Shown: positions 12,940 to 60,388, counted from the first letter of the stretch. The stretch: 64,000 bases of DNA from an uncultured Alphaproteobacteria bacterium (GCA_964611585.1 CAZTAK010000001.1:11132-75131); one strand, 5' to 3'. The notes: a model not told the origin generated them from the letters alone. Program-made: numbers and translations.

Positions 12940-14217
12940 ATGGGAATGACGCTTTCCGAGAAGATAATCGCCAGGGCCTGCGGGCAGGATTCGGTGCGGC
13001 CGGGTGAAATCGTGACCTGCAAGGTCGATCTCGCCATGACCCACGATTCGAGCGGGCCGCGCCGCCAGGCGCCGCGCCTGAAGGAACTCGGCGTCAAGGT
13101 GTGGGACCCGGACAAGGTGGTGATCCTTACGGATCACTACGTTCCGGCGGTCGATGCGCTGAGCGCGGAGATCCTCAAACTCACACGCGACTGGGTCAAA
13201 GAACAGGGGATAAAGAATTTCTACGACATGCAGGGCATCTGCCATGTCGTGCTGCCCGAGCGCGGCCACCTGCACCCGGGCCAGTTCGCCGTCGGCGGTG
13301 ATTCCCACTCGCCCACCGGGGGCGCGTTCGGGACCTTCATGATCGGGGTCGGCGCCACCGATATGACCGGCGTTCTGGCGACCGGCGAAATCTGGGTCAA
13401 CGTACCGCCGACCATCCTGGTGCGCTGGACCGGCGATCTTCCCGAATACGTCACCGCCAAGGACATGATGCTGCGGCTGTGCGGCGAGATCGGCCTTAAC
13501 GGCGCCAACTACAAGGTCGTTGAGTTCGCCGGCAATGGCGTGAGCGCGCTCTCGATGGACGAACGCATGGTGCTGCCCAACATGACCGCCGAAGTCGGCG
13601 CCAAAACCGGCATCATTGCCCCCGACGCGGTGACGGTGGAATGGCTAAAAGCCGCGGGCGCGGAAACAGCGGGCGCGCTGGACTGGTTTTCGGACGAGGA
13701 CTGCGAGTACGAGAGTGTGTTGGAATTCGATGCCTCCACACTGTCACCACAGGTGGCGGCGCCGCACAGTCCGGCCAATGCCGCGCCGGTAGAGGACTTC
13801 AAGGACGTTGCCGTCGATCAGGCCTACATCGGCGCCTGCACCGGCGCGAAACTCGAAGACCTGCACATGGCGGCCGAGATCGTCCGCGGCCAGACCGTCG
13901 CCGAGGGAACGCGCTTTCTGGTGGCGCCCGCCTCAACGCGAATTACGGCGCAAGCCGCCGCCGACGGGACGCTGGCGACGCTGACCGCGGCAGGTGCAAT
14001 CTTGCTGCCGTCCGGTTGCGGCGCGTGTGCGGGCCTCGGCGCGGGCGTGTTGTCGGCAGGCGAGACCTGCATCTCGTCCACCAACCGTAATTTCAAGGGC
14101 CGCATGGGCCCCTCGGACGCTTCCGTTTATCTGGGATCGCCCTATGCAGTGGCGGCCGCGGCGGTGGCCGGGCACATCGCCGATCCCCGCGACATCAGCA
14201 ACCGGAGGGCATCATGA
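12940..14217 (+). CDS. aconitase-family dehydratase large subunit, archaeal-type LeuC-like (LeuC/homoaconitase/dimethylmaleate hydratase family)
   Basis: The 425-aa product aligns along its length with small-type LeuC (MGMTLSEKI, VDLAMTHD, GGDSHSPTGGAFG, the Fe-S cysteines in SGCGACAG and ISSTNRNFKGRMG). Confidence 0.85.
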   Translation: MGMTLSEKIIARACGQDSVRPGEIVTCKVDLAMTHDSSGPRRQAPRLKELGVKVWDPDKVVILTDHYVPAVDALSAEILKLTRDWVKEQGIKNFYDMQGICHVVLPERGHLHPGQFAVGGDSHSPTGGAFGTFMIGVGATDMTGVLATGEIWVNVPPTILVRWTGDLPEYVTAKDMMLRLCGEIGLNGANYKVVEFAGNGVSALSMDERMVLPNMTAEVGAKTGIIAPDAVTVEWLKAAGAETAGALDWFSDEDCEYESVLEFDASTLSPQVAAPHSPANAAPVEDFKDVAVDQAYIGACTGAKLEDLHMAAEIVRGQTVAEGTRFLVAPASTRITAQAAADGTLATLTAAGAILLPSGCGACAGLGAGVLSAGETCISSTNRNFKGRMGPSDASVYLGSPYAVAAAAVAGHIADPRDISNRRAS

Positions 14218-14720
14218 GCGGTACGGACGGCGGCGGCACCGCCTGGGTCTATGGCGACGACATCGACACGGATTCGCTGGCGCCGGGGCTCTATCTCAAA
14301 GGGTCGATGGAGGAGATGGCGAAGCATTGCCTCGAAGCGATCGACCCCACCTTCGCCGCCGAATCCAAGGAAGGCGACTTCGTGGTGGCGGACGAGAATT
14401 TCGGCATCGGTTCGTCGCGCGAACAGGCGGCGCAGTGCCTGTCGATATTGGGCGTCAATGTGGTGCTGGCCAAGAGTTTCGCGCGTATCTTTTACCGCAA
14501 CGCTTTCAACGTCGGTGTCGTGCCGCTGGTGTTCAAAGACGCGGACAAAATCAAGAAAGGCGACCGCCTGCGGGTCGATGCGGCTGCGGGCACGATCGAA
14601 AATCTTACCAGGAACGAGACCTACACCTGCGAGACCGTACCACCGCACCTGATGGAAATCGTTGCCGACGGCGGCCTGATGCCGCATCTGAAAAAGAAAC
14701 TGAAAGGAAAAACGACGTGA
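14214..14720 (+). CDS. aconitase-family dehydratase small subunit (LeuD-like)
   Basis: ATGA overlap with the upstream stop. The product has the LeuD-like swivel domain (VYGDDIDTD, GIGSSREQA). Confidence 0.85.
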   Translation: MSGTDGGGTAWVYGDDIDTDSLAPGLYLKGSMEEMAKHCLEAIDPTFAAESKEGDFVVADENFGIGSSREQAAQCLSILGVNVVLAKSFARIFYRNAFNVGVVPLVFKDADKIKKGDRLRVDAAAGTIENLTRNETYTCETVPPHLMEIVADGGLMPHLKKKLKGKTT

Positions 14721-15601
14721 CCGATTATCAATCGCTCAAGAGCCAGCTTGCAGGCGATGACATCATCGTCGCGCCCGGCTGCTATGACGCCTATTCGGCA
14801 ATGATGATCGCCAAGGCCGGCTTCAGCGTGGCCTACATCTCCGGCGCCGGCGTGTCGTTTACGCGCATCGGACGTCCCGATATCGGCCTGGTCAGCATGC
14901 ACGAAGTGGCCGAGACCGTGAGCGCGATCGCAGAATTCAACGACATCCCGCTGGTCATCGACGGCGATACCGGATTCGGTAATGCGCTCAACGTAATGCG
15001 CACGGTGCGCCTGTTCGAACGCGCGGGCGCGAGCGCGATTCAGCTCGAAGACCAGACCATGCCCAAGCGCTGCGGTCACCTGAGCGGAAAGTCGCTGGTG
15101 CCGGATGCGGAAATGGTCGGCAAGATCAAGGCCGCGACCGACGCACGGCGCTCGGACCAAACACTGATCATCGGCCGCACCGACGCGATCGCGGTCGAGG
15201 GGTTCGAACGCGCGCTCGAGCGCGCCGAACGCTACGTCGAGGCGGGCGCGGACGTCCTGTTCATCGAGGCGCCGCAGACCGACGATCAGATGAAGGCCCT
15301 GACGGCGCAGTTCAAAGGCCGGGTCCCGCTCCTGGCGAACATGGTCGAGGGCGGCAAGACGCCGCTGAAAAGTGCGGCCGAGTTGCAGGCGCTCGGCTAT
15401 TCGCTGGTGATTTTTCCGGGCGGGCTGATCCGGGCCTATTCGTTCATGGCCGCGGAATACCTGAAGAGTTTACGCGAAAACGGCACCACGGCGCCCTACC
15501 GCAACCGGATGCTGGATTTCGATCAGCTCCAGGAGGTGCTGGGAACGGCCTCGGTGCTGGAGGCGGGCGGGCGCTACGACGCCGAGAACTTCGAGGCCTG
15601 A
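14717..15601 (+). CDS. isocitrate lyase/PEP mutase superfamily lyase (2-methylisocitrate lyase / 2,3-dimethylmalate lyase-like)
   Basis: The GTG start overlaps the LeuD-like stop (GTGA). The product carries the ICL/PEPM signature KRCGH plus DGDTGFG and IEDQ. Confidence 0.8.
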   Translation: MTDYQSLKSQLAGDDIIVAPGCYDAYSAMMIAKAGFSVAYISGAGVSFTRIGRPDIGLVSMHEVAETVSAIAEFNDIPLVIDGDTGFGNALNVMRTVRLFERAGASAIQLEDQTMPKRCGHLSGKSLVPDAEMVGKIKAATDARRSDQTLIIGRTDAIAVEGFERALERAERYVEAGADVLFIEAPQTDDQMKALTAQFKGRVPLLANMVEGGKTPLKSAAELQALGYSLVIFPGGLIRAYSFMAAEYLKSLRENGTTAPYRNRMLDFDQLQEVLGTASVLEAGGRYDAENFEA

Positions 15602-15629
15602 CAAGCGAGGCATACGAAGCGGACGCGCG

Positions 15630-16496
15630 ATGACCGAACGCTTCACGTTTTCGAGCCCGGACGCCCTGGCGGCACGCATCCCTGACGGCGCGCACCTGGC
15701 GATCCCGGCCGACCGGCGCGGCGTGTCGATGGCAACGACGCGCGCCCTTATCCGCCGCAGCGCGCGCGATCTCCGGCTCGTCGCCGTCCCCACCAGCGGG
15801 CTTCAGGCTGATCTCCTGATCGGCGCCGGCGCAGTCGCCGAAATCGAAACATCGGCCGTCTCGCTGGGCGAATACGGCCCGGCGCCGCGGTTTGGCGAGG
15901 CCGTCGAGCAGGGACGCATCGTCATCTTGGACGCTACCTGCCCCGCCATTCACGCCGGATTGCACGCCGCCGAAAAAGGCATCCCGTTCATGCCGCTCAG
16001 GGGAATTCTGGGCTCGGACCTGCTGGTCCACCGCCCCGACTGGACAGTGATCGAAAATCCCCTGGGGCCGGTGCCGGAAGAACGGCCCGGCACCACGGCA
16101 GAGGACTTTGCCGATCCCATCGTCATTCTGCCGGCGATCCGGCCCGATTTCGCGCTCTTTCATGTGCCGCTCGCCGACCGGGCCGGCAATATCTGGGTCG
16201 GGCGCAACCGCGATCTCATTACCATGGCGCATGCGGCGCGCGAGACCCTGGTGACAGTGGAAGCAATCGCCGATCACGATCTCATGGCCGATCGCGAATG
16301 GGCGGCGGGGACGCTTTCGTCGTTCTATGTGAGTGGCATCGCCGTTGCCGAGAAGGGCGCCTGGCCGACGGCGATGCCGGGCACCTACGAAGAAGACGCA
16401 GAGCACATGCGCCGCTACGCCGAACAAGCCCGCAGCGGCGAGGGATTCGCGGCCTACCTCGAGGAATTCGTTTTTCAGGACCTTTCCCTCGGGTAG
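15630..16496 (+). CDS. CoA-transferase family I, subunit A
   Basis: The 288-aa product resembles glutaconate/3-oxoadipate CoA-transferase A subunits. It sits immediately upstream of the B subunit. Confidence 0.7.
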   Translation: MTERFTFSSPDALAARIPDGAHLAIPADRRGVSMATTRALIRRSARDLRLVAVPTSGLQADLLIGAGAVAEIETSAVSLGEYGPAPRFGEAVEQGRIVILDATCPAIHAGLHAAEKGIPFMPLRGILGSDLLVHRPDWTVIENPLGPVPEERPGTTAEDFADPIVILPAIRPDFALFHVPLADRAGNIWVGRNRDLITMAHAARETLVTVEAIADHDLMADREWAAGTLSSFYVSGIAVAEKGAWPTAMPGTYEEDAEHMRRYAEQARSGEGFAAYLEEFVFQDLSLG

Positions 16497-16501
16497 CGCT
16501 C

Positions 16502-17224
16502 ATGGATGCCGGGCCCGAAGAGTTCCTGATCTGCGTCATCGCGCGGCTTCTCGCCGGCACGCGCCATATCGCGGTCGGCGCCCTGTCGCCGATACCCGGA
16601 TCGGCGGCGCTGTTGCACCAGGCTGAGAGCCGCGAGCCGGTTCGCGTCTCGGTTCTCGACAGCCGGCGCAATTTCTGGTCGGACGGCAGCAAGGAACTGT
16701 TCGACTGCGCGGCGCAGGGACGCATCGACGCCTTTTTCCTCGGCGGCGCCCAGATCGACGGCCAGGGCAACGTCAACCTCGTCGGCGTCGGTGGTTATCC
16801 CCGGCCGAAGACGCGCTTTTCGGGATCGTTCGGATCGGCCTATCTCTATTTTCTCGTGCCGAGGGTGATTCTGTTCCGAGAGGAGCACACGCCGCGGACG
16901 CTGGTCGATAAAGTCGATTTCATATCGAGCCCCGGAACGAGCCCGGACAACGTCTATCGCCGCGGCGGGCCCTCGGCGCTGGTGACGGGAAAAGCGCTGT
17001 TCACCTTCGATGAGGCGGGGCGCCGCTTTCGCCTCGCCAGCAGCCATCCGGGATACACCGCGCCGGACATCGAGGCGGCGACAGGATTTGCCTTCGAGAC
17101 GCCTGCCTCGGTCCCGGCAACAGCGGCCCCCGATGCGGCCACGCTCAATCTGTTGCGGGGACCCGTGGCCCGCGAGATCGCCGAGACCTACCCCCGCTTC
17201 GCCGCACGGGTTTTCGGCGACTAA
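16502..17224 (+). CDS. CoA-transferase family I, subunit B
   Basis: The ATG lies 6 nt after the subunit A stop. The B-subunit-like sequence (GGAQIDGQGNVNLVGVG) is present. Confidence 0.65.
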   Translation: MDAGPEEFLICVIARLLAGTRHIAVGALSPIPGSAALLHQAESREPVRVSVLDSRRNFWSDGSKELFDCAAQGRIDAFFLGGAQIDGQGNVNLVGVGGYPRPKTRFSGSFGSAYLYFLVPRVILFREEHTPRTLVDKVDFISSPGTSPDNVYRRGGPSALVTGKALFTFDEAGRRFRLASSHPGYTAPDIEAATGFAFETPASVPATAAPDAATLNLLRGPVAREIAETYPRFAARVFGD

Positions 17225-17377: not shown

Positions 17378-18496
17378 ATGCGCGCCGATATGACCCACGA
17401 CGAGACCGCGCAGATGGATTTTATCATGAGCCTCTACCGGCACCTCGGGCGCAACATCGTGCCCGGGCACCGCGAGGTTTATGACGGGCGCGTCAAACCC
17501 GCGTTCGAACGCAAGAACGGCCGGGCGCCGAAAACCCGCCACGAAGTTCGCAAGGCAATGCTGGACGACCCCTACTTTCAGTTCTGGAGCCATCTGCGCC
17601 TTTACAGCCAGGCCAAGAGCTATGACCTGAGGCGCGAGATCGTCGACCGGCAATTGGACGACCTGATCGAGCGCGCCAAACCACGCGCGTCCGACAAGGG
17701 CACGGTGGAACTCGATGCCGATTTCGAGATTCCGAAATATCAGGCGGCGTTCGACATGCACTGGATGCCGGGCAGCTTCTACACCGAATTCGCCGAGGAC
17801 GACGTCGCCGCGGGCGTCATGTATGACACCGGCGGGCTCTATATCGCGCTGTCAGGTTCGATCGGCGCCTACAACGACGGCGCCGGCCATGCGGTGGTGC
17901 ACTGGCTCAACGAAAATCACCCGGATTTCAAACCGAAGCGCGTGCTCGACGAGGGCTGCACCGCAGGCGGCAATACATTGCCCTTCAAGTATGCCTAGCC
18001 CGATGCGGAGATAACCGCCATCGACATCGGCGCACCGGTACTGCGCTATGCCCACCGCCGGGCCGAGAGCCTCGGCTATGAAGTCCATTTCTCGCAGCAG
18101 AATGCCGAAGAAACGAGATATGAAGACGAGAGCTTCGATCTTGTGGTTTCGACCATGTTTTTGCACGAAACCTCGAACAAGGCGGTGCACAACATCGTTG
18201 CCGAATGCCACCGGCTGTTGAAACCGGGCGGGCTGATGGTGCATGTCGAGCAACCGCCGTTCGCGCGCTTCGACGATCCCTTCGATCAGTTCGTGCGCGA
18301 CTGGGACACGCACAACAACAACGAGCCGTTCTGGGGCCCGATGCACGACATGGACCTGCCCCAGGTAGCGGTGAAGGCGGGCTTCGCGCGCGATGACGTC
18401 ATCATGGAAATGGCGAAATATTGCGCCCCCACCAAAGAGAACCCCTACCGCGAGGCGCCGGGCGGCTGGTTCATCTTCGGTGCCTGGAAACGGTAA
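17378..18496 (+). CDS. class I SAM-dependent methyltransferase; reading frame interrupted by an in-frame TAG at 17996-17998
   Basis: ORFs 17378-17998 and 18143-18496 are in the same frame. Methyltransferase motif I (VLDEGCTAGG) is followed by KYA-TAG-PDAEITAIDIG and then by DLVVSTMFLHE and LLKPGGLM (post-I motifs) after the stop. Confidence 0.6.
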
Positions 18497-19075: not shown

Positions 19076-19264
19076 AGCTATGGGGCCTCGCTGGCGCCGG
19101 GTGCGGCGTCGGCCGGATCGACCGGCCGCGGCGTCTGCCGGATCGGCCGGGTTCCGCCTCGCGAGGGCGCGCCCCCGCAACCCCGAAGCCTCGATTCGAA
19201 GACTGGGGCGGCCGCCGGTGCCGTGGTTCTAGGGCCGATGCGAAGACAATAGCGATCCGCCCGC

Positions 19265-19490
19265 CGGGCCGTTACGCGGCAAATTGCCGCCCGGCGGCGG
19301 GGCGGCGGCGCCGGCGACGGTCCGATCTCTACGGTTTAGGCGGCGCGCCAAGCGCGCATCAAGTTCGACCGGTTTACGCGGCGCGCCCAGCGCGAATCAT
19401 GTTCGACCGGCTTACGCGGCGCCACAGGCGCCACGGTCCGGTCTCTCGGCTTACGCGGCGCCTCGGGGCGCCACGGTCCGGTCGCTATTG
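19265..19490. repeat. tandem array (about 5 units) of a 38-39 bp GC-rich repeat containing GGCGCC...GGCGCC palindromes
   Basis: The units cggtttaggcggcgcgccaagcgcgcatcaagttcgac, cggtttacgcggcgcgcccagcgcgaatcatgttcgac, cggcttacgcggcgccacaggcgccacggtccggtctct and cggcttacgcggcgcctcggggcgccacggtccggtcgct are contiguous. The array lies between the 3' end of a deacetylase gene and the 5' end of a lipoprotein gene. Confidence 0.7.
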
Positions 19491-20450
19491 CTGGCTCTTC
19501 CAGCTATCGAGGATTTCCGATGCGGTCGCGGTCCACACGCCCGACTTGCTGGTCAAATAGTCGAGCACCTGCTCCAGGAACCGGATGCGGTGCGGCTGGC
19601 CCGACATCCACGGATGAATGGTAAGCGCCATGATGCGCCCGCCCTGGGTCCCGGCCTCGGCATGCAGGGTGTCCAGCTGGTCCTTCACCTGCTGGACGAA
19701 TTCATCGCCCGTCTGCTTGTAGAAGAACAGGATCGTCGCATCCGAAATCCAGTGCTGGTGCGGCATCGCCGTCACCTCGCCCGATTTGGTGCGGAACGGG
19801 TAGGGCATGTCGTCGTTGATCCAGTCGCACAGGTAGTCCACGCCCTCGGCCGCCACCAGGTCCGGTGTCGCCCAGGATTCCGAACGCGCCGGCGAAAGCC
19901 AGCCGCGCACGGGCTGGCCCGACATTTCGCGCAACGTCGATAGCGATTCCTGCACCTGCACCTTTTCTTCCGATTCGTCGAGGCCGGTGTAATGCAGTTT
20001 CGCCATGTTGACACCGTGGGCCATGATTTCCCAGCCGCGCCGGGTCACCTCGTCGACCAGGAACGGGTTGCGTTTGGCAACGTCGGAATTCATCGCCACC
20101 GTCGCCTTGATGCCGCTATCGTCCAAGGCCTTGGCGACGCGGTAGAACCCGACCCGGTTGCCGTAATCGCGCAGCGTATAGTGGCGCAGGTCCGGGTAGG
20201 GCGTCACCATGCTGCCCTGGGCCTTGAACGGTTTTACCGGCGTATCGAGCGGGAAGAATTCCAGCACCGGCGTCACCCACAACGCGATGCGGGCGCCATT
20301 CGGCCAAACGACGGGCTTGCGCCGCGGCAGGATCGACCAGTCGTAACGGTCGTGATCCATGCCGTAACTGCGGTGATCGTAAACGAGATAGCTGTCCGGC
20401 AGCGAATGAGTGTGCTGGTCGTCGCTGGTGGCATCAATCGGCGGGCGCAT
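19485..20450 (-). CDS. polysaccharide-deacetylase-fold hydrolase of the PuuE (allantoinase-like) family
   Basis: The product is paralogous to the upstream gene (WPNGARIALWV..YGNRVGFYR..HG.N). The start is 2 nt after the upstream stop. Confidence 0.7.
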   Translation of the reverse strand: MRPPIDATSDDQHTHSLPDSYLVYDHRSYGMDHDRYDWSILPRRKPVVWPNGARIALWVTPVLEFFPLDTPVKPFKAQGSMVTPYPDLRHYTLRDYGNRVGFYRVAKALDDSGIKATVAMNSDVAKRNPFLVDEVTRRGWEIMAHGVNMAKLHYTGLDESEEKVQVQESLSTLREMSGQPVRGWLSPARSESWATPDLVAAEGVDYLCDWINDDMPYPFRTKSGEVTAMPHQHWISDATILFFYKQTGDEFVQQVKDQLDTLHAEAGTQGGRIMALTIHPWMSGQPHRIRFLEQVLDYLTSKSGVWTATASEILDSWKSQQ

Positions 20451-20452
20451 GG

Positions 20453-21394
20453 TCAGGTCCTCGGCGGGTGTTTCTTGTTGAATTCGCTGGTCGCGTTGAC
20501 CCATTCGTCGTAGCCGTGCTCGAAGAAGTGTTCGGCGATCTGGGTGCCGGTAGTGACCCACACCTTGTCGTGGCCGGTAATGTATTTGAGCGCCTCGTCA
20601 AGGGCGCCGATGCGGTGTGCCTGACCGACCGCATAGGCGTGCAGCGGAATGCACATGATGGTGCCCGAATTCTCACCCTCGGCGTAGAGGCGGTCGAAGT
20701 TGCCCTTGAGCCAGTCGAAATAGACCCGCGGCGGCACGAAGTGCTGGTTGTAAACGATGATGTCGTTCATCTCGAGGGAATAGGGAATCGAGATCAGGCG
20801 GCCTTCCTTGACGTTGACCGGACACGGCTGGTCGTCGTGGAACAGATCGCAGGTGTAAAAAAAATCGTTCTTCGCCAGCAGATCCATCGTGCGCTCGGTG
20901 TGCGTTAGCGCGGGCGCGAGATAGCCGCGGATACGCTGGCCGGTGTGCTGCTGCACCGACTTGATCGAGTCATCGAGGATCGCCTGCTCCTGCGCCTCGT
21001 TCATGTTGTAGGAATAGCGCGTGTTGTAGATGCCGTGGGAATAGAACTCCCACTCGCGCTTGACGCATTCCTCGACGATTTCGGGGTGGTGGTCCAAAAG
21101 CGCCACCGACAGCGAGATCGACCCCCTGACACCGTACCGGTCCAACACCTCCATCAGGCGCCAGTGGCCGACGCGGTTGCCGAAATCGCGTTCGGAATAG
21201 GGCACCAGATCGGGCCGCGGCTTGGGCCACGGCTGTCGTGCCGGGTTGGAGGGCCCGTCGAGTTCGTAATACTCGATGTTGGGCGCTACCCAGAAAGCGA
21301 TGCGCGCACCGTCCGGCCATTCGATCTTGGGACGGTTGATATATGGCAGATAATCGTAAAGCCCGAGGTCGCTTTTCACGGACCGACTCCCCAA
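20453..21394 (-). CDS. polysaccharide-deacetylase-fold hydrolase of the PuuE family (paralog)
   Basis: The 313-aa product has WPDGARIAFWV, DFGNRVGHWR and HGIYN motifs shared with PuuE-type cyclic amide hydrolases. Confidence 0.7.
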   Translation of the reverse strand: MGSRSVKSDLGLYDYLPYINRPKIEWPDGARIAFWVAPNIEYYELDGPSNPARQPWPKPRPDLVPYSERDFGNRVGHWRLMEVLDRYGVRGSISLSVALLDHHPEIVEECVKREWEFYSHGIYNTRYSYNMNEAQEQAILDDSIKSVQQHTGQRIRGYLAPALTHTERTMDLLAKNDFFYTCDLFHDDQPCPVNVKEGRLISIPYSLEMNDIIVYNQHFVPPRVYFDWLKGNFDRLYAEGENSGTIMCIPLHAYAVGQAHRIGALDEALKYITGHDKVWVTTGTQIAEHFFEHGYDEWVNATSEFNKKHPPRT

Positions 21395-21413
21395 TAATTG
21401 ATGACTCGCCCGG

Positions 21414-22088
21414 TCAGTTGACCGGCTGATAGTTGTTCAGATAGTCGCGCACAGTTTCGAACGATTCTATATCGCCGTACTTGAGCTGCATGTCGGCAAG
21501 GTTGGCAAAGTGCGGGATTTCGTGTTTGTCGGCGACGCCTTCTTCGCAGACGATGGTGCGATAGCCGTGCGACAGCCCGTCCACGCAGGTGGCGCGCACG
21601 CAGCCCGAAGTCGAGCCGCCGTTCAGGATCAACGTATCGATACCGTGGTACACCAGCAGCGAGGCCAGCGGCGTTTCATAAAACGCGCTCGCCATACGTT
21701 TGAGGTAGATCAGGTCGCGGCCGCGGTCGATCTTGAGGCGGTCGTCGAATTCGTTCCGCTCCGAGCCGATCTTGATGTTCTGGAGCGAATCCGGGGTATC
21801 GGTGCGCGTGCCCCAGACACCGCAGTCCTCGCCCGAATCGGCATAGCCGACGTGGGTCCACACCACCGGCAGGCCCTTGGATCGGCAGATTTCAGCCAGT
21901 TCGTTGACGTAATCGAGCTGTTTGGGGTCGGTTTCGTAAGCGGTCTTGAACAGGTCGGTGCGGGTGTAGGCCTTTTGCAGGTCGATGTTCACCAAGGCCG
22001 CCTTGCGACCGAATCCGAATCTAGCCCGGTCCGGATTGGCTTTGATGCTGGCGAAATACTCTCGTGGCGTGAGATCCGACGCTTCCAT
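21414..22088 (-). CDS. isochorismatase-family cysteine hydrolase (amidohydrolase)
   Basis: ATG 22088 has an RBS. The product carries the isochorismatase-like fold signature (ALVNIDLQKAY, the catalytic Cys in GGSTSGCV, and TIVCEEG). Confidence 0.7.
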   Translation of the reverse strand: MEASDLTPREYFASIKANPDRARFGFGRKAALVNIDLQKAYTRTDLFKTAYETDPKQLDYVNELAEICRSKGLPVVWTHVGYADSGEDCGVWGTRTDTPDSLQNIKIGSERNEFDDRLKIDRGRDLIYLKRMASAFYETPLASLLVYHGIDTLILNGGSTSGCVRATCVDGLSHGYRTIVCEEGVADKHEIPHFANLADMQLKYGDIESFETVRDYLNNYQPVN

Positions 22089-22187
22089 GGGTTTCCTGCC
22101 TGATTGATCTTTTTGAAAGGACTTTGAGCTAGATTCGGGGAGCGTTCCGGGATTGTCAAGCGGGGTTCGAATCCGGTCGGCGCTGCA

Positions 22188-22538
22188 TTGCAACCCGCGC
22201 GCCCTCTACGAACCGGCGGACCGCCCGGCGGGTTTTCGGTCCGCACCTGCACCTCCGGAGCGGAGGCGCTGACGGCGCTTGATGAATTCAAGCCCGACCT
22301 GGTTCTGCTCGACGTCATGATGCCCGGGATGGACGGCCCGGCGACCCTGCGCGCCATCCACGATATCAAAGGGTACGCCGACCTCCCGGTCGTCTTCTTG
22401 ACGGCGAAATTCCGGCCGCACGAGATCGGGCACTACGTCGATCTCGGCGCCATCGACGTGATCGCCAAACCGATCGACCCCCTGGACCTGCCGGCGCAAC
22501 TACAGGCGATTTGGACGCGCTATCATGCAAACGCCTGA
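22188..22538 (+). CDS. response-regulator receiver domain protein lacking the N-terminal beta1/alpha1 (acidic-pocket DD) region; TTG start
   Basis: It retains the phospho-acceptor region (LVLLDVMMPGMDG), T/K positions (VVFLTAK) and the C-terminal AKPIDPLDL. No upstream frame supplies the missing N-terminal residues. Confidence 0.5.
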   Translation: MQPARPLRTGGPPGGFSVRTCTSGAEALTALDEFKPDLVLLDVMMPGMDGPATLRAIHDIKGYADLPVVFLTAKFRPHEIGHYVDLGAIDVIAKPIDPLDLPAQLQAIWTRYHANA

Positions 22539-22872
22539 AGCCCGCGCCGAACTCTCCGAAGCGCTTGCGCGCCTCAACAAGAAATTTTCCGAATCGCTGC
22601 CGAAACGGATTTTGGCGCTTGAAAACGACCTCGCGGAATCGCGGCGCACCGGCTATGCCGCCGAATCGTTAGGGAAACTCTACCGTGCCGCCCACAGCCT
22701 TGCCGGGGCGGCAGGAACCTTCGGACGACCCCAACTCAGTGCGGTTGCGCAGGTGCTGGCGGAATATCTGAACCGGCACGCCGATGGTGGCGCCGAGTTC
22801 AGGAGCGCCGAGGCGGATCAAATCGATGCCCTGACGGCGAGCGTCATCAAGGTCGCCAACGCCGACCGCTAG
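22525..22872 (+). CDS. Hpt (histidine phosphotransfer) domain protein
   Basis: The HxxxG motif AHSLAGAAGTFG is present. The gene overlaps the upstream receiver gene end by 14 nt. Confidence 0.6.
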   Translation: MQTPEARAELSEALARLNKKFSESLPKRILALENDLAESRRTGYAAESLGKLYRAAHSLAGAAGTFGRPQLSAVAQVLAEYLNRHADGGAEFRSAEADQIDALTASVIKVANADR

Positions 22873-22901
22873 GCCACCTGCTCGGACTGAAGCGTCTTTC
22901 G

Positions 22902-23597
22902 TCAGTTGCGCTCGATCCAAGACCGGGCGCGCTGCACGCCGAGGGCAACCTGTGCCGGCGTCAGGCGTTCGCGCACGGCATCGCGATTGGCCGCAGCTCC
23001 CGGGTACCCGCGCTGCGCCAGGACTTCGAACCAAGTAAAGGATTCGATCATATCCTCGGGAACCCTACTGTTGCCGAGCAGGACGGCGACGATGTACTGC
23101 GAGCCCGCAAAATCTTGATAGGCGGCGAACCGCGCCCAACGCAGGGCCGCGGCCGGATCCTTTTCGACACCATCGCCGCGGAGGTACATCTGGCCGAGCA
23201 GGTGGCGGGCCGCGACGACGCCCTGGCCGGCTGCAAGCCTGAACCAGCGCGCTGCTCCGGAATAATTCTGCGCGACGGCGCCGCCGTTGGTGCCGGTACC
23301 GTTGTAGAGCATGAATCCGAGGCTGAATTGGGCCTCGGCGTAGCCCTGATTCGCAGCTTGGCGATACCATTCCGCGGCTTGGGCGTAGCTGCGCGCCACC
23401 CCCTGCCCGTGATCGTACATGGCGCCAACGATATATTGAGCCTCTGCGTCGCCTCCCTCAGCGAGGCCGCGCAGACTGGACCACGCAGCCGGGTAATCGC
23501 CCCGCAGATAGGCGGCCTGCCCATCGGCGAGGTCGGCGCGGACGCCCGATGCCGTCCCGATCAGGAGTAGTGCCGCCAGCAGGACAAGCTTCTTCAT
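22902..23597 (-). CDS. Sel1-repeat secreted protein
   Basis: A signal peptide (MKKLVLLAALLLIGTASG) is followed by multiple Sel1/TPR-like units (AEAQYIVGAMYDHGQGV, AEAQFSLGFMLYNG). Confidence 0.8.
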   Translation of the reverse strand: MKKLVLLAALLLIGTASGVRADLADGQAAYLRGDYPAAWSSLRGLAEGGDAEAQYIVGAMYDHGQGVARSYAQAAEWYRQAANQGYAEAQFSLGFMLYNGTGTNGGAVAQNYSGAARWFRLAAGQGVVAARHLLGQMYLRGDGVEKDPAAALRWARFAAYQDFAGSQYIVAVLLGNSRVPEDMIESFTWFEVLAQRGYPGAAANRDAVRERLTPAQVALGVQRARSWIERN

Positions 23598-23983
23598 GCC
23601 TGGTCCTCCATTACGGAACCGAACAGCGCCGGCCCGTCTAAAACTGGTTCGCGTATTATATCGTCTGCGGAACCACCGGCGAAGCCGCTAAGACGGCTCG
23701 CGGGTGCGACAAATCGTGGCGGGGCGGGGCAGCGGCTATCGGCCAGCGCCGGACTTGAACGAGTTCAGGGCGTCGGCGGCAGACCCTTGCGGCCAGCGCC
23801 GATTCGCGGTGCGGATGGCGCCGGTGTCCGGAATCCGGCAACCGCACGGTTTGCTCTAGGTCGTGGACTCACAAACAACGCAAGGCATTGAAACGACTTG
23901 TTTCTTCGCCAGCCACAGTTTGTTCCAAACAGGTCAGTAACCCTCTGATCTGTTTTGGTTTTCTGGACCAATGGGTACGTGAC

Positions 23984-24532
23984 CTAATTTGTCCGACTGA
24001 ACTTTTCGATCGCCAGTTCCAGCGCCTCGATCAGTTCGGCGCCCGTCGTGCCGCCGTCGCCCTCGATCCGCTCGCGGATCACGACGTTCATCGTGTCGAT
24101 GTGCGCCTTGACGATTTCGACATGGTCGTCGGTGGTTCCCGCACTGCGCCCGGTAAACTGGTGCAGCGACTTGGCGAACGTTGTAATCAGCGGATACCCG
24201 AAAGTACCGCCCTGCCCGCGCATGTCGTGGGCGATCTCGTTGATCTTGCGATAGGGCCGGTAGCGCTCCTTTTCGGGCGCAGACTGCGCCACCTTGAGGG
24301 CGGCGACGAGTTGATTCACCGAACCGCTGACCCATTCGGGATAGCCTTCCGAGAACTTGGAGATTTCGGCCATCGCCTCTTCCAGGGTTTCGCTGGCAAA
24401 GCCCAGGCTGCCGCCGGCAACGCCGCTGCCTGCCTTGTCCTTGAGCTTGTTGCGCAGCCGGAAATACCGCACCTTGGCCTTTTTCTTGGCTCGCATGCCA
24501 GGTGCGGTCGGGCGCCTGTTTTCGGAGGCCAT
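23984..24532 (-). CDS. Hpt-like domain protein with a basic N-terminal region
   Basis: The motif IAHDMRGQGGTFGYPLITTFA fits the Hpt HxxKG..G pattern. The start is 3 nt downstream of the (readthrough) receiver gene stop. Confidence 0.45.
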   Translation of the reverse strand: MASENRRPTAPGMRAKKKAKVRYFRLRNKLKDKAGSGVAGGSLGFASETLEEAMAEISKFSEGYPEWVSGSVNQLVAALKVAQSAPEKERYRPYRKINEIAHDMRGQGGTFGYPLITTFAKSLHQFTGRSAGTTDDHVEIVKAHIDTMNVVIRERIEGDGGTTGAELIEALELAIEKFSRTN

Positions 24533-24535
24533 CGG

Positions 24536-25093
24536 TCAGAAATTCCCGTCGTCGTAAATGACTTCCGCTTCCTTGTCGGTGATGATGCGGCGCTCGCCTT
24601 TGCTGGTCTCGGCACGGCGGCGCCGCCGGTCCGGACCAAAATATACCGGTGTCAGCACGTACTGACGCGGCCGTTCGATCAACTGGCCAAGTATCCGGGT
24701 CAAACTCTGGATCTAATAGGGCTTGCCAAGAACTTCGGTGGCGCCGAGATCGCGCGCCTCGCGCACCTTTTCCATATCGGCGTGGCCGGTGACGAGGATG
24801 AAGGGCATGAACTTGTCGGGAGAGTCCTTGTGCCGCCGCAGCCACTTCAACAGCATAATGCCGTCGACGGGCGACATCTCCCAGTTCGACATGATGAAAT
24901 CCACGCTGCTGATTCCAGCCTTGCGTGGATCATCTTGCATGAGCTTGAGAAGTTCGATCGCCTCGCCGCCGTCTCCGGCAATTACGACGTTTCCGCTACC
25001 GAGGCGCAACAATATCGAACGCAACAGGTTGCGCATGCACGAATTGTCGTCGACAACGAGAACCGTAAACAGGCTCAGGTTGTAACCATCCAT
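24536..25093 (-). CDS. CheY-like response-regulator receiver; reading frame interrupted by an in-frame TAG at 24713-24715
   Basis: The N-terminal 126 aa form a canonical REC (LVVDDNSCMR, the acceptor Asp in FIMSNWEMSPVDG, FILVTGH, GKPY). The frame continues after the TAG as IQSLTRILGQLIERP (alpha5) for 58 codons to TGA 24536-24538. Confidence 0.65.
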
Positions 25094-25209: not shown

Positions 25210-26238
25210 TCAGTTTTCTACCGCCCAGGTATGGCCCTGCCGCAGCATGGCGTTGAGACCGGCACTGGATTTGGCCGTGCGGGCGCTGTCGATCTGGGCC
25301 CAGACTTTGGTTTCAAAGCTGGCCGAAGGATCGCAGTACAGGACCCCCAGCGCGACCGGAAATTGCGGCCGCGGCATTGCCGCCAGCAGCGCGGCAAGCG
25401 CGTGGTTGGTCTCGTCGTGAACGAGAAGGTCGTCCTCGGTCATGCCGTTTTCGCCGATGACAACGCTTTCGAGGTCGAGCGTGCCGGGCTTCAGCCTCAG
25501 GCCGCGTTTGCGTTCGGTGCCAAAGATCAGCGGCGCCCCGTGCTCGACGAACAACTGGTTGTCGGCGGCAATATCTTTTTCGATGAAGTCACCAAATACA
25601 TTGTCGTTGTAGACGATGCAGTTTTGAAAAATCTCGACGAAAGATGCCCCGTCATGAGTGTGCGCCCGTTTGAGAATTTCCGGCAAATGAGTCTTGCTGG
25701 TATCGATGGAACGGGCCACGAATTGCGCCCCGCAACCGAGCGCAAAGCTGGCCGGATGCACGGGATTGTCGAGCGAGCCTTCGGGTGTCGAGGGCGACTT
25801 CGTTCCCGGCCGCGAAGTCGGCGAATATTGACCCTTGGTAAGACCGTAAATTTCGTTGTTGAACAGAATGATCTGCAAATCGACGTTGCGGCGCAGGGCG
25901 TGAAACAAGTGATTGCCGCCAATCGATGTGCCGTCGCCGTCGCCGGTAATCACCCACACGTCGAGATTTGGATTGGCGAGGCGGATACCGGTGGCGACCG
26001 CGGGCGCGCGCCCGTGGATGGTATGAAAGCCGTAGGTGGCCATGTAATAGGGAAAGCGCGACGAGCAACCGATACCCGACACAAAGACGGTTTTTTCAGG
26101 GTCGCCCCCGATTTCGGCCATCGTCTTCTGCATCGCCTTGAGAATCGCGTAATCGCCGCAACCGGGACACCAGCGGACTTCCTGGTCGCTGGCGAAGTCC
26201 TTGGCGGTACGCTTCTGCACAGCAGGAACAACGTTCAT
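25210..26238 (-). CDS. korB: 2-oxoglutarate(2-oxoacid):ferredoxin oxidoreductase, beta (TPP-binding) subunit
   Basis: The product has WCPGCGDY and GIGCSSR together with the TPP-binding motif GDGDG..NN.IYGLTKGQ. Confidence 0.85.
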   Translation of the reverse strand: MNVVPAVQKRTAKDFASDQEVRWCPGCGDYAILKAMQKTMAEIGGDPEKTVFVSGIGCSSRFPYYMATYGFHTIHGRAPAVATGIRLANPNLDVWVITGDGDGTSIGGNHLFHALRRNVDLQIILFNNEIYGLTKGQYSPTSRPGTKSPSTPEGSLDNPVHPASFALGCGAQFVARSIDTSKTHLPEILKRAHTHDGASFVEIFQNCIVYNDNVFGDFIEKDIAADNQLFVEHGAPLIFGTERKRGLRLKPGTLDLESVVIGENGMTEDDLLVHDETNHALAALLAAMPRPQFPVALGVLYCDPSASFETKVWAQIDSARTAKSSAGLNAMLRQGHTWAVEN

Positions 26239-26239
26239 G

Positions 26240-28120
<1,881 letters not shown>

Positions 28121-56510: not shown

Positions 56511-58589
56511 ATGCAATTGGTTGGTGTCGATGTCGGGGGCACGTTTACCGACATCGTCTATACGGATACGGACGATAACCGGACCATCATCCACAAGGTC
56601 CCGACGACACCCGAGGACCCGTCGAAGAGCGTCATGCAGGGGCTTTACGAATTGTGCGAGCGCAATGGGATCGACCGCAACGGGGTCGATCATGTGCTAC
56701 ATGGCACCACCATTGCCACCAATGCCGTGCTCGAAAATGACGGCGCGCATACCGGCATGATCACCACCAAGGGCTACCGCGATATTCTGCACATCGGCCG
56801 GCATCAGCGCCCACAGCACTATTCGATCATGCAGGAAATCCCCTGGCAGAACCGGCCTCTGATCCGGCGCCGCCACCGCAAGACCGTGACCGAACGTATT
56901 GCGGCGCGGGGCGACGTGCTGGCGCCGCTGAACGAAGACGAAGTGCGTATCGCCGCCCGCGCGCTGAAGGACGAAGGCGTCGAGTCGATTGCGGTGTGTT
57001 TCCTGTTTTCCTATATCGACCCCGGCCACGAAGAGCGCGCCGCCGAGATCGTGCGCGAGGTGTACCCCGAAGCCTTCGTCACGACCTCGTCCTCGGTGAC
57101 GCCCCAGTTCCGCGAGTTCGAGCGCTTTACCACCGCGGCGATGAACGCCTTTGTCGGCCCCAAGGTACGGACCTACGTCTCGAAACTCGCGAACAGCATC
57201 CGCGACGGCGGGATGAAGGCCGATCTGCATATCATGGGCTCGAACGGCGGGATCGCAACGGCGGGCCTTGTCGCCGAACGCCCGGTGCTGACGCTGCTGT
57301 CGGGACCGGCGGCGGGCGTCCTTGGCGGGGCGTGGTGCGGCGAGGTCGCGACACGCGAAAAACTCATCACCTTCGATGTCGGTGGAACTTCGGCCGACAT
57401 CGGTATCGTCACCGAAGGGCGGTTCGGCGAAGCGACCGCGCGCGATACCTGGATCGCAGGATTTCCGTTGATGGTGCCGATGATCGACGTTCATTCGATC
57501 GGCGCCGGCGGCGGCTCGATCGCGTGGCGCGATTCGGGCGGCACCTTCCGGGTCGGCCCGCGCAGCGCCGGATCGCAACCGGGCCCCGCCGCCTACGGGC
57601 GCGGCGGCAAGTTGCCGACGGTAACCGACGCCAACGTGGTTCTGGGACGGCTCAGCGCCGACAATTTTCTGGGCGGCGAAATGGACCTCGATGTCGAGGC
57701 GGCGACGCGGGTGATTTCCGCCTTCGCGAAGGAACTCGATCTCGGACTGCATGACTGCGCCGAAGGAATATTGACAATCCTCAACGCCAATATGGCGAAC
57801 GCGATCCGCTCGCGTACCGTTCAGAAGGGTATTGACCCGCGCGACTATGCGCTGGTCGCCTTCGGCGGCGCGGGGCCCTTGCATGGGGTGGCGGTGGCGG
57901 CGGAAATGGGAATCCAGGAAGTTTTGATTCCGCCTTACCCGGGTATCACCTCCGCGGTCGGCCTGTTGACGACCGATCACAAGTACGATGCGATTCGTAC
58001 CGAATTCCAAGTCCAGGGCGAAGTCGATACCGCCCGCCTCATGCGCGACTTTGAGGCGATGGAATCGGGGCTCGCCAACCAGTTCCGCGAAGAGGGCCTC
58101 GATGCCGATCAGGTAAGCTTCCTCCGTTCGGGCGATTTGCGCTATCTCGGCCAGGGCTATGAGCTCCGGATCGACCTTTCCGAAGGCGACCTCGACGCGG
58201 CCGCCCTAAAGGCCCTGTGGGCACAGTTTCATGGCTCCCATCTCAAGGACTACGGCCACAACTACCCCGATACGGAAATCGAAATCGTCAATATCCGCGT
58301 TTCGGGCGTCGGCACCATGCCCAAGATCGGAACCCCCTCGCTCGATGGTGCGAAACGGTCATTCGAGGCGGCGCTGGTCAAGCGCGATGCCTGCCACTTC
58401 CGCGTGGACGGCGTGCTCGACAGTTTCGAGACCGCGTTCTACCAGCGCGAGACCCTGCCGCTGGAACAGGACATCGCCGGCCCCGCCATCATTTTGCAAA
58501 AAGACACCACCACCGTAGTGCCGCCTGGCGCCACCGCCCGCGCCGATACCGGCGGCAACCTGTTCATTCGCCTGGGAGGAACACCATGA
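56511..58589 (+). CDS. hyuA: hydantoinase/oxoprolinase family, subunit A (ATP-dependent N-methylhydantoinase A-like)
   Basis: An RBS (GGGAGGAA) is present. The product begins [16 protein letters not shown] and has the hydantoinase_A domain. Confidence 0.85.
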
Positions 58590-60388
58590 CCGGCCCAAGC
58601 CCCGTCGCCGGGCGCGGCGACAACGGCCCTGCCGTCGATCCGATCACGGCGTCGGTAATTCAGGGCGCGCTTGAAAGCATCGCCATCGAGATGGGCTACA
58701 AGCTGATGCGTATGGCGTATTCGTCGATCATCCGGGAATCGGAAGACTTCGGCGCCGCGCTCGTCGATACCAAGTGCCGCCAGTTGTGCGAAAGCAAGCA
58801 GTCGACGCCGCTGCAATCGGGTCCGATCCCGGGTTACATCAAGGGCATTCTGAAAACCCTGAAGGCGCGCGGCGAAGCGATCGAGCCCGGCGACGTCATC
58901 ATGCACAATGACCCCTACGGTGGTTCGTCCCACGGCCCGGACGTGCTGTTCGCAGTGCCGGTGTTTCACGACGGTTCCCTGATCGGATTTGCGGCCACGA
59001 CCGCGCATCATCTGGATATCGGCGCGCTGTCACCCGGCAGTTGCGGCATCGTCGATGCGATGGACGTCTATGCCGAGGGCCTGCAGTTCAAGGCGATCAA
59101 GGTGTACGACCAGGGCGTCAAGAACGACATGGTGTGGCACATGTTGCGCGACAATATCCGCGCCTCGCACCTGGTGGTAGACGACATGGAAGCGCAGATC
59201 GCCGCCGCTCGAATCGGTGGCGAGCGGTTCCTGGAACTTGCGAACCGATATGGCATCGACACCGTCAACGCCGCCGCCGAGGCATTGATGGATGCATCCG
59301 AGCGCATGATGCGCGACGCCATCGCCAAGATTCCGGACGGAACCTATTCGGCCACCGGCCATATCGACGGTTACGAACTGAGTGACAATCCGAAAGAAAA
59401 GGAACTTCCCATCGTCGTCACCGTCACCGTCGAGGGCAATGATATGACCGTCGACCTGACCGGCACGGCGGATCAGATCGACCTGCCGATCAACATGCCG
59501 CTCGAGGGCACGGTCGATGTCGCGATCTGGCTGACGGTGCGCTCGATCCTGGTGGATACTGCCGTCTACGGCCATGTTCCGCAAAATTCAGGACTTACCC
59601 GGCCGATCAAGATCATCGTGCCGCCGGCGACGCTGGCCAACCCGGAATTTCCGGCGCCGGTCATCGCGCGTTTCTCGCCCGGCGTCATCATTGCCGACAC
59701 CCTGATGCGGGCGTTGGCGCAAGCCGTGCCGCGACAAGTCTCGGCGGGGGTCGGAAATCTCAAGGTGATCGCGTTCTCGGGCCTCGAAAAGGGGCGCCAC
59801 TGGGTCCACATGGAAATCTTCGAGGGCGCCTACGGCGGGCGCCATGGCATGGACGGGATGGATGCGGTCGATACGCTCTATGCCAACACTCGCAACAACC
59901 CGATCGAAGACATTGAGACCCACCTGCCGCTGCGGGTGGATCGCTATGAACTGCGCGAGAACATGGTGCCGGCCGGCGAATGGCGGGGCGGCATTGGTGC
60001 GATCCGCGAGTTTTCGTTCAAGGCCGACGGCGGCTATTCGGTCGAGGGCGAAGGCCACATGTTCAGGCCTTGGGGCTTTTCAGGCGGCGCCGAAGGCGAT
60101 CCGGCTGAACTTCAGTTCCGCACCGCGGCCGGGGTGGCGTCGGATCTGCCCTCGAAGCTCCCCTACCAGCCGGCTACCACCGGCGATACCTTCCTCGCGG
60201 TCGGGCCCTGCGGTGGCGGCTACGGCGACCCGCTGGCGCGCGACCCGGAGAAGGTCCGCGACGACGTGCTCGACGGGTATATCGGGACCGAGACCGCGCT
60301 TGCCGATTATGGCGTTGTCCTGACCGAGGCGCTTGAAGTCGACGCCGCCGCCACCGAAACGACCCGCAGCGAACGCCGCGCCGCGTGA
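58586..60388 (+). CDS. hyuB: hydantoinase/oxoprolinase family, subunit B
   Basis: ATGA overlap with the hyuA stop. An RBS (GGAGGA) is present. The hydantoinase_B domain is present ([12 protein letters not shown]). Confidence 0.85.

Follow-up and report, generated by a model that had tools for sequence, protein, structure and literature searches.

The closest described relatives of the genes studied here are two kinds of ring-opening hydrolase, the allantoinase PuuE and the cyclic imidases (EC 3.5.2.16). In PuuE of Pseudomonas fluorescens (structure 3CL6), a Glu-His-Trp triad stands in place of Asp-His-His, and Glu36 and His259 are catalytic. The imidase BpIH of Burkholderia phytofirmans, to which structure 3S6O is 91% identical, has the triad E38-H127-W131 and contacts its substrate through N36 and N220. 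HxnM of Aspergillus nidulans and the imidase CIH of Pseudomonas putida YZ-26 belong to the same PuuE clade, and BpIH and HxnM act on glutarimides. Here we describe three adjacent genes, named iso, A and B, on a 64,000-nucleotide stretch (the window) from an uncultured Alphaproteobacteria bacterium (GCA_964611585.1, CAZTAK010000001.1:11132-75131). A and B share both the clade of the imidases and their metal-independent fold, which is derived from carbohydrate esterase family 4 (CE4). The known imidases are homotetramers, whereas this locus has two coupled paralogous genes, one of them degenerate. Its partner amidase also differs, being an isochorismatase-fold cysteine hydrolase and not an amidase-signature enzyme of the HxnN type. 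The proposed order of reactions is nevertheless that of HxnM and HxnN, in which ring opening is followed by a separate ammonia-releasing amidase.

The three genes are one operon at 19485-22088 on the minus strand. The first gene, iso (22088-21414), starts with ATG and encodes 224 amino acids (aa). A (21379-20453) starts with GTG and encodes 308 aa, and B (20450-19485) starts with ATG and encodes 321 aa. The initial annotation had reported two PuuE-like paralogues and an isochorismatase-family gene here, and translation of the window gave three intact open reading frames (ORFs), with no stop inside any of them. It had put the isochorismatase gene last. Since the genes lie on the minus strand, the order of transcription is iso, A, B. 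The gap between iso and A is 34 nt and holds the ribosome-binding site GGGGAG, and B starts 2 nt after the stop of A. When 19200-22500 was scanned, no promoter-like sites were found on the minus strand, and the count of terminator-like sequences was near chance. In the database, A has an identical entry (P0001) and B a 99% identical one (P0121). The two paralogues share 33% identity (E = 6e-61). Their mutual score is 184 bits, compared with 109 bits (A) and 84 bits (B) against PuuE, which places the paralogues nearer to each other than to PuuE.

Both A and B match the Pfam family Polysacc_deac_1 (PF01522; A 2.6e-8, B 6e-10). In the public PGAP and JGI annotation they are called "polysaccharide deacetylase family protein", and iso is called "isochorismatase family protein". 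The top NCBIfam model for both is PuuE (TIGR03212), at 138.8 bits for A and 121.2 bits for B against a cut-off of 424.6, which neither reaches. The closest solved structures are PuuE 3cl6, 1z7a, 3s6o and 3rxz, with HpPgdA more distant, and A matches 3cl6 at 2.9e-30. AlphaFold2 models were compared with solved structures by Foldseek. The model of A (pLDDT 82) has a template modelling (TM) score of 0.78 to 3cl6 and 1z7a, and the model of B (pLDDT 80) scores 0.73-0.76 to PuuE-clade structures. Over both models, the TM scores to PuuE, 1z7a, 3s6o, 3rxz and HpPgdA are 0.69-0.80, whereas those to canonical CE4 structures are about 0.45-0.55. The Asp-His-His metal triad is absent from A and B, and so is the catalytic-base Asp. 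At the position of the TFDD motif, A has N-I-E and B has V-L-E; where H-x-x-x-H has its second His, A carries Asn and B carries Met. No obvious signal peptide was seen in either protein. These results support the view that A and B belong to the metal-independent PuuE/cyclic-imidase branch and are not true peptidoglycan or chitin deacetylases. The initial annotation had reached the same view, and had named grouping with true deacetylases that carry an intact Asp-His-His triad as the contrary outcome; we found no such grouping and no such triad.

To this fold comparison we added alignments of 82 A and 78 B orthologues, taken from 84 loci. In A, N34-x-E36, H115, N205 and H247 are invariant in 82/82 orthologues. 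They match N36, E38, H127 and N220 of BpIH, and H247 aligns with H259 of PuuE. A therefore has equivalents of both Glu36 and His259 of PuuE, its best match in sequence and structure, and shares the N-x-E, His, Asn and C-terminal His positions with BpIH, CIH and HxnM, from which it is otherwise distant (about 26-29% identity). The PuuE triad itself is incomplete in both proteins: A has E36-H115-N119, invariant in the 82 sequences, and B has E64-H145-M149, which is variable. HMMER alignments to PuuE, made with single sequences and with an A profile, never reach the N-terminal Glu region, so the N-x-E assignment rests on the alignment to 3rxz, the strand position in the model and the residue list of BpIH.

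The imidase contact and catalytic positions are thus all present in A, and in most species they are not all present in B. Among the 78 B orthologues, the Glu is kept in 82% (otherwise Gln), the first His in 67% (otherwise N, G, Y or K) and the second His in 45% (otherwise T, R, I or V), and N-x-E has lost its Asn. A and B also share invariant residues elsewhere, namely D178/D209, D182/D213, D206/D237, R256/R288 and T164/T195 (A/B), together with R64, R69 and R74 (A numbering). In 73/77 loci, the start of B lies between -50 and +30 nt from the A stop, so that the two genes overlap or abut. B also has a conserved N-terminal extension, which is disordered in the monomer model. Because the catalytic residues are kept in A and mostly lost in B, and because the genes overlap or abut, we infer that A and B form an obligate hetero-oligomer in which A is catalytic and B is a structural or regulatory pseudo-enzyme. 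Where the initial annotation had counted two hydrolases, this leaves A, with its catalytic positions kept throughout, and takes away B in most species.

The iso protein matches the Pfam family Isochorismatase (PF00857) with 94.7 bits (threshold 27; 9e-27). Its closest solved relatives are N-carbamoylsarcosine amidohydrolase 26st (3.5e-31), the maleamate amidase Ami (4l07/4l08), 1nba and NicF (3ot4). The Asp-Lys-Cys triad is conserved among the orthologues (D36 in 75/78, K130 in 78/78 and C163 in 78/78). Scores stay below the NCBIfam cut-offs for RutB (38/378 bits), BiuH (28.6/370), PncA (26.9/174) and PRK11440 (49/195). By sequence, iso groups with N-carbamoylsarcosine amidase and the maleamate amidases, in agreement with the amidohydrolase assigned initially; it shares the isochorismatase-fold subgroup and the triad with NicF of Bordetella, Ami of P. 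putida S16 and N-carbamoylsarcosine amidase. In the substrates of these three enzymes, the terminal amide that is hydrolysed lies four atoms away from a carboxylate, and we propose iso as a half-amide amidase. Unlike them, iso is not part of a nicotinate, nicotine or creatinine cluster, and its E-values to them range from 1e-18 to 1e-31. N-carbamoylsarcosine and methyl-maleamate are isosteric, so the family placement of iso alone cannot separate a ureide from an imide product. The ATP-independent ring opening followed by deamidation that had been suggested for the three genes is reasonable, given the PuuE/imidase branch of A and B and an amidase-group iso with an intact triad, and the strict three-gene synteny supports it.

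A has more than 3,500 database relatives, and the best 120 of them are at least 63% identical to it. A pattern scan with one genome per species gave at least 591 confirmed matches to the cassette among 185,579 species-representative genomes. Among the matches listed, most are Alpha-, Beta- and Gammaproteobacteria, mainly aquatic and soil Proteobacteria, alongside a few from the Bacteroidota, Marinimicrobia, Gemmatimonadota and Rokubacteria. The cassette is carried by cultured bacteria such as Brevundimonas diminuta, Caulobacter endophytica, Niveispirillum, Nitrospirillum, Hydrogenophaga and Kordiimonas. Plasmid or chromid copies were found in Burkholderia plantarii (p1), Sphingomonas sp. JE1 (pJE1), Comamonas endophytica, Novosphingobium and others; the Burkholderia, Sphingomonas and Comamonas hosts are cultured bacteria. 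The order iso-A-B is kept in nearly every one of the 84 loci with enough sequence, across phyla and contexts; in Brevundimonas, iso lies downstream on the opposite strand.

All ORFs of the 84 loci were clustered de novo and then scanned against family models. In the window, a block of genes on the plus strand (12940-17224) converges on the cassette. It starts with the large subunit of an aconitase/homoaconitase/LeuC-family hydratase (AcnL; 12940-14217, 425 aa), which is above cut-off for NF001614 (545 bits) and hacA_fam (491 bits). The small subunit, of the LeuD/DmdB family and "type 1" (AcnS; 14214-14720, 168 aa), is above cut-off for TIGR02087 (174.7 bits). A methylisocitrate-lyase-like enzyme of the phosphoenolpyruvate-mutase/isocitrate-lyase superfamily follows (14717-15601, 294 aa). 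With 294.6 bits to PrpB (TIGR02317; cut-off 354.4), it is a superfamily member and not an equivalog. In the PDB it matches 3eoo (6e-57), petal death protein (7e-56) and dimethylmalate lyase 3fa3 (1.4e-46). The same operon also holds the two subunits (288 and 240 aa; Pfam CoA_trans) of a glutaconate-CoA-transferase-family protein (15630-17224). Its subunit A matches glutaconate CoA-transferase 1poi (2.4e-20) and also AibA 5mzw and IpdA 6co6. AcnS has the substrate loop APG-x-Y-[LMF]-K, whose basic residue is compatible with a distal carboxylate, yet bacterial LeuD also has Lys. The loop reads YLRT in archaeal homoaconitase and YLVM in isopropylmalate isomerase.

Similar genes accompany the cassette elsewhere. 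AcnL is present in 36/84 loci and lies in the same operon as the cassette in many other genomes, and the PrpB-like lyase is present in 28/84 loci, nearly always with the type 1 hydratase. The type 1 module, an archaeal-type LeuCD/HacAB-like pair with a PrpB-like lyase, occurs in about 20 loci including the window. AcnL, AcnS, lyase, iso, A and B form one co-directional block in many genomes (L012, L015, L031, L034, L038, L043, L051, L057 and L083). In 14 loci a type 2 module is found instead, consisting of a bacterial LeuCD-like pair, a family-III CoA-transferase and a protein of the 3-hydroxy-3-methylglutaryl-CoA (HMG-CoA) lyase subfamily (HMGL). The top model for the type 2 transferase is succinate-glutarate CoA-transferase, below cut-off. 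The two-subunit CoA-transferase is limited to the lineage of the window, and the family-III enzyme is the one found in other genomes. On pJE1, the order HMGL-iso-A-B-leuC-leuD-lyase makes up a single operon. Overall, 31/50 loci with at least 6 kb on both flanks carry at least one gene of a hydratase/lyase module. A true glutaryl-CoA dehydrogenase (3e-185 to 3gnc) divergently adjoins the hydratase in 12 loci, among them B. plantarii p1, whose enzyme is 71% identical.

Considering these genes together, we propose that the cassette is a catabolic module in which an A/B imide hydrolase and the iso amidase are followed by a hydratase and a lyase, a reading that we judge about equally likely to stand or to fall. 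The hetero-oligomer, a metal-independent hydrolase of the PuuE type with the active site in A and an often catalytically dead B, would cut one C-N bond of a cyclic imide (an EC 3.5.2.16-type reaction) to give a half-amide. From this, iso would free the amide nitrogen as ammonia through its Asp-Lys-Cys triad, leaving a cis-dicarboxylate, which would be a substituted maleate. The Fe-S hydratase of the aconitase/LeuCD family would then hydrate the substituted maleate. The hydrated product would be split by the methylisocitrate-lyase-like enzyme, or in other genomes by the CoA-transferase and the HMG-CoA-lyase-like enzyme. Finally, a CoA-transferase would activate the acid fragment, which glutaryl-CoA dehydrogenase would oxidise in many genomes.

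Enzymes of the aconitase/LeuCD family hydrate cis-2-butenedioates such as aconitate, isopropylmaleate, citraconate and dimethylmaleate, and lyases of the isocitrate lyase/PrpB and HMGL families cut the resulting substituted malates. Two unrelated pairs of hydratase and lyase have been recruited beside iso-A-B, and a substituted maleate as the product of the cassette is the simplest explanation for this. The substrate ring would therefore be of the maleimide type or of an oxidisable succinimide type. The recurrence of glutaryl-CoA dehydrogenase and of glutarate/glutaconate-type CoA-transferases suggests that glutarate is one of the cleavage products. The same logic, an aconitase-family hydratase acting on a substituted maleate and then a C-C lyase, is that of dimethylmaleate hydratase (DmdAB) and 2,3-dimethylmalate lyase (Dml) in nicotinate fermentation by Eubacterium barkeri. 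Hydratase-then-lyase logic is also shared with PrpB/AcnB of the methylcitrate cycle and with R-citramalyl-CoA lyase and its CoA-transferase in Chloroflexus. Compared with these three systems, the neighbours of the cassette reach no equivalog cut-off. Within the literature searched, which left subscription-only journals outside its scope, no system of the DmdAB/Dml, PrpB/AcnB or citramalyl-CoA-lyase type was found joined to an imidase/amidase cassette.

One compound fits every step of this scheme. Hematinic acid, 3-methyl-4-carboxyethyl-maleimide, arises from the oxidation of heme, bilins and chlorophyll. If it were the substrate, A/B would open the ring and iso would remove the nitrogen to give 2-methyl-3-(2-carboxyethyl)maleate, a methyl-cis-homoaconitate. 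The homoaconitase-like enzyme would hydrate it, the PrpB-like lyase would yield pyruvate and glutarate, and glutarate would enter metabolism via the CoA-transferase and glutaryl-CoA dehydrogenase. Methyl-, methyl-ethyl- and methyl-vinyl-maleimides would instead take the branch with the LeuCD-like, CoA-transferase and HMG-CoA-lyase-like enzymes. We offer this substrate as a speculative chemical fit, and a doubtful one. Reported sources of hematinic acid include the ChuS reaction, chlorophyll degradation, senescent leaves and lake sediments. Full-text searches, with subscription-only journals outside their scope, turned up neither a paper on this cassette nor one on how bacteria break down maleimides or hematinic acid. 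The cassette with its hydratase, lyase and glutaryl-CoA dehydrogenase might be the missing bacterial route for monopyrrolic products of tetrapyrrole oxidation, with A/B as the first heteromeric PuuE-fold enzyme that has a pseudo-enzyme subunit; we advance this only tentatively, and think it probably goes too far.

Several observations weigh against the imide scheme or against its A/B heteromer. Of the 50 well-flanked loci, 19 have no hydratase or lyase genes nearby, and the window has no glutaryl-CoA dehydrogenase. Among solved structures, iso is closest to an N-carbamoyl amidase, and such an enzyme would suit a ureide equally. A has Asn and B has Met in place of Trp131 of the PuuE/BpIH triad, and A/B may therefore work by a different mechanism. 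B in the window retains Glu64, His145 and His279 and, with the Glu and both His in place, might be active there. One Cytophagales locus (L064) has iso and A with B undetected within 10 kb, and a few Caulobacter loci have no iso nearby, so neither the heteromer nor the pairing with iso is absolute. L064 is a Bacteroidota variant, as is a Runella locus (L036), in which B lies about 420 nt from A and does not abut it.

There are other ways to read the genes. Taken at their public names and PF01522 matches, A and B would be ordinary polysaccharide or peptidoglycan deacetylases. With no metal triad or catalytic-base Asp, no obvious signal peptide, TM scores of at most 0.55 to canonical CE4 structures and a purely catabolic gene context, this is effectively excluded. 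Alternatively, A and B might each form a homo-oligomeric enzyme of its own with a distinct task, for example on two different rings or regio-isomers, or B might have a new non-hydrolytic activity. PuuE and HpPgdA are indeed homotetramers, the B of the window retains the three residues just named, A and B have several invariant residues in common, and one genome has A without B. On the other hand, the catalytic equivalents of B vary freely across species while those of A are invariant, the two genes are translationally coupled in nearly all loci, and the conserved N-terminal extension of B is disordered when it is modeled as a monomer. We consider separate enzymes unlikely, and prefer the heteromer with A as the catalytic subunit.

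As to the substrate, the initial annotation had favored a hydantoin, allantoin or pyrimidine-like ring. A and B would then be two active hydrolases of ureide rings (hydantoin, N-methylhydantoin, allantoin or dihydropyrimidine), with iso as an N-carbamoyl amidase and an amino acid, CO2 and ammonia as products. Several points would fit: PuuE is the top NCBIfam match of A and B, iso has N-carbamoylsarcosine amidohydrolase as its closest solved relative and RutB and BiuH as weaker matches, and caprolactamase-like HydA/HydB genes lie near the cassette in 7 loci. However, A and B score about a third of the PuuE cut-off and lack the triad Trp. Purine, pyrimidine and creatinine genes do not recur as neighbour clusters in the 84 loci, whose conserved neighbours include no uricase, OHCU (2-oxo-4-hydroxy-4-carboxy-5-ureidoimidazoline) decarboxylase, uraD, allantoicase, sarcosine oxidase, creatininase or dihydropyrimidine dehydrogenase. 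The Fe-S hydratases and C-C lyases that do recur would have no role after an amino-acid product, and are predicted instead to act on substituted maleates. It had also been suggested that the cassette complements the hydantoinase cluster of the window, and this link is not supported. The cluster is about 35 kb away, and its HydA and HydB are 38% and 29% identical to the cassette-linked HydA/HydB and not orthologous to them. A ureide substrate, which keeps some support from the family of iso and none from the gene context, is improbable in our view. Another candidate is a ring of six members, glutarimide or else the glutaconimide tautomer of 2,6-dihydroxypyridines. From this ring, A/B and iso would yield glutarate or glutaconate directly, which would pass to a glutaconate-type CoA-transferase and to oxidation or decarboxylation by glutaryl-CoA dehydrogenase, while the hydratase and lyase would serve another branch. 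The characterised clade members BpIH and HxnM act on glutarimides, and glutaryl-CoA dehydrogenase and CoA-transferases of the glutarate or glutaconate type recur near the cassette. But the hydratase and lyase are linked to it in about 33-36 loci, compared with 12 for glutaryl-CoA dehydrogenase, and often share the iso-A-B operon, and this reading leaves them without a role. We rate this substrate, too, as unlikely, and retain a five-membered imide that gives a substituted maleate.

The HydA/HydB-type genes of the window belong to the ATP-dependent hydantoinase/oxoprolinase family and lie at 56520-60388 on the plus strand. They are of another subfamily than the caprolactamase-like HydA/HydB genes that accompany the cassette in L006, L073, L080 and L089. 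Further PuuE-clade paralogues near the cassette were seen in L042 (3651-4538), L088 (2796-3698), L055, L065, L076 and L077; one of these is a third copy with the canonical triad Trp and adjoins an SDR gene and a methyltransferase gene. Comamonadaceae have two more PuuE-clade copies, which share 45% and about 30% identity with A, along with another isochorismatase gene and an Asp/Glu/hydantoin racemase.

Other genes that recur beside the cassette are a GntR/UTRA regulator (20 loci), an S-adenosylmethionine (SAM) methyltransferase of about 400 aa (16), a FAD_binding_4 oxidase (14), a TonB-dependent receptor (12), a secreted CN-hydrolase (11), a TcuA/flavocytochrome-like flavoprotein (10), an Asp/Glu/hydantoin racemase (9) and the caprolactamase-like HydA/HydB (7). 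The TonB-dependent receptors next to the cassette have generic matches to siderophore, heme and B12 receptors, all sub-threshold. In L034, L057 and L083 (Rhodospirillaceae; about 12-17 kb), B is directly followed by five tandem paralogous genes for VOC/glyoxalase-fold proteins of about 324 aa with an apparent signal-peptide-like start, and then by an enoyl-CoA hydratase gene.

The window has a SAM-dependent methyltransferase gene of about 372 codons at 17378-18496 on the plus strand, with an in-frame TAG at 17996-17998. In 16 other loci, an intact orthologue of about 400 aa adjoins the cassette, most often accompanied by a partner protein of 118 aa. L001 and L002, which are independent assemblies of the same population, are split identically, so the TAG is probably a real nonsense mutation or marks a pseudogene. 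Selenocysteine at this stop was rejected because the codon is TAG and not TGA.

Between the B stop and a lipoprotein gene lie four tandem copies of a GC-rich repeat of about 38 nt (CGGYTTASGCGGCGC...; 19332-19485). The related contig L001 and the window differ by an indel of 24 nt somewhere between 19075 and 19485, an interval that takes in these repeats. On the other side, genes for a small response regulator (22188-22538) and an Hpt phosphotransfer protein (22525-22872) are directly upstream of iso and divergent from it. Beyond the Hpt gene are a Sel1-repeat protein, another response regulator and an alpha/beta pair of 2-oxoacid:ferredoxin oxidoreductase. These upstream genes (22188-25093 and 25210-28120) are probably unrelated to the cassette, since homologues were found in at most 5 other loci.

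The protein families described here are already known. What appears to be new is the coupled pair of a catalytic and a degenerate PuuE-fold protein, its fixed isochorismatase-fold amidase partner and the pathway context. If the proposal is true, the cassette would represent a widespread nitrogen-releasing route for cyclic imides, and A/B would be the first PuuE-fold enzyme made of a catalytic and a degenerate subunit. Many orphan "LeuCD-like" and "PrpB-like" genes would also gain a role. Should the substrates be tetrapyrrole-derived maleimides, the microbial fate of heme and chlorophyll breakdown products would become directly testable.

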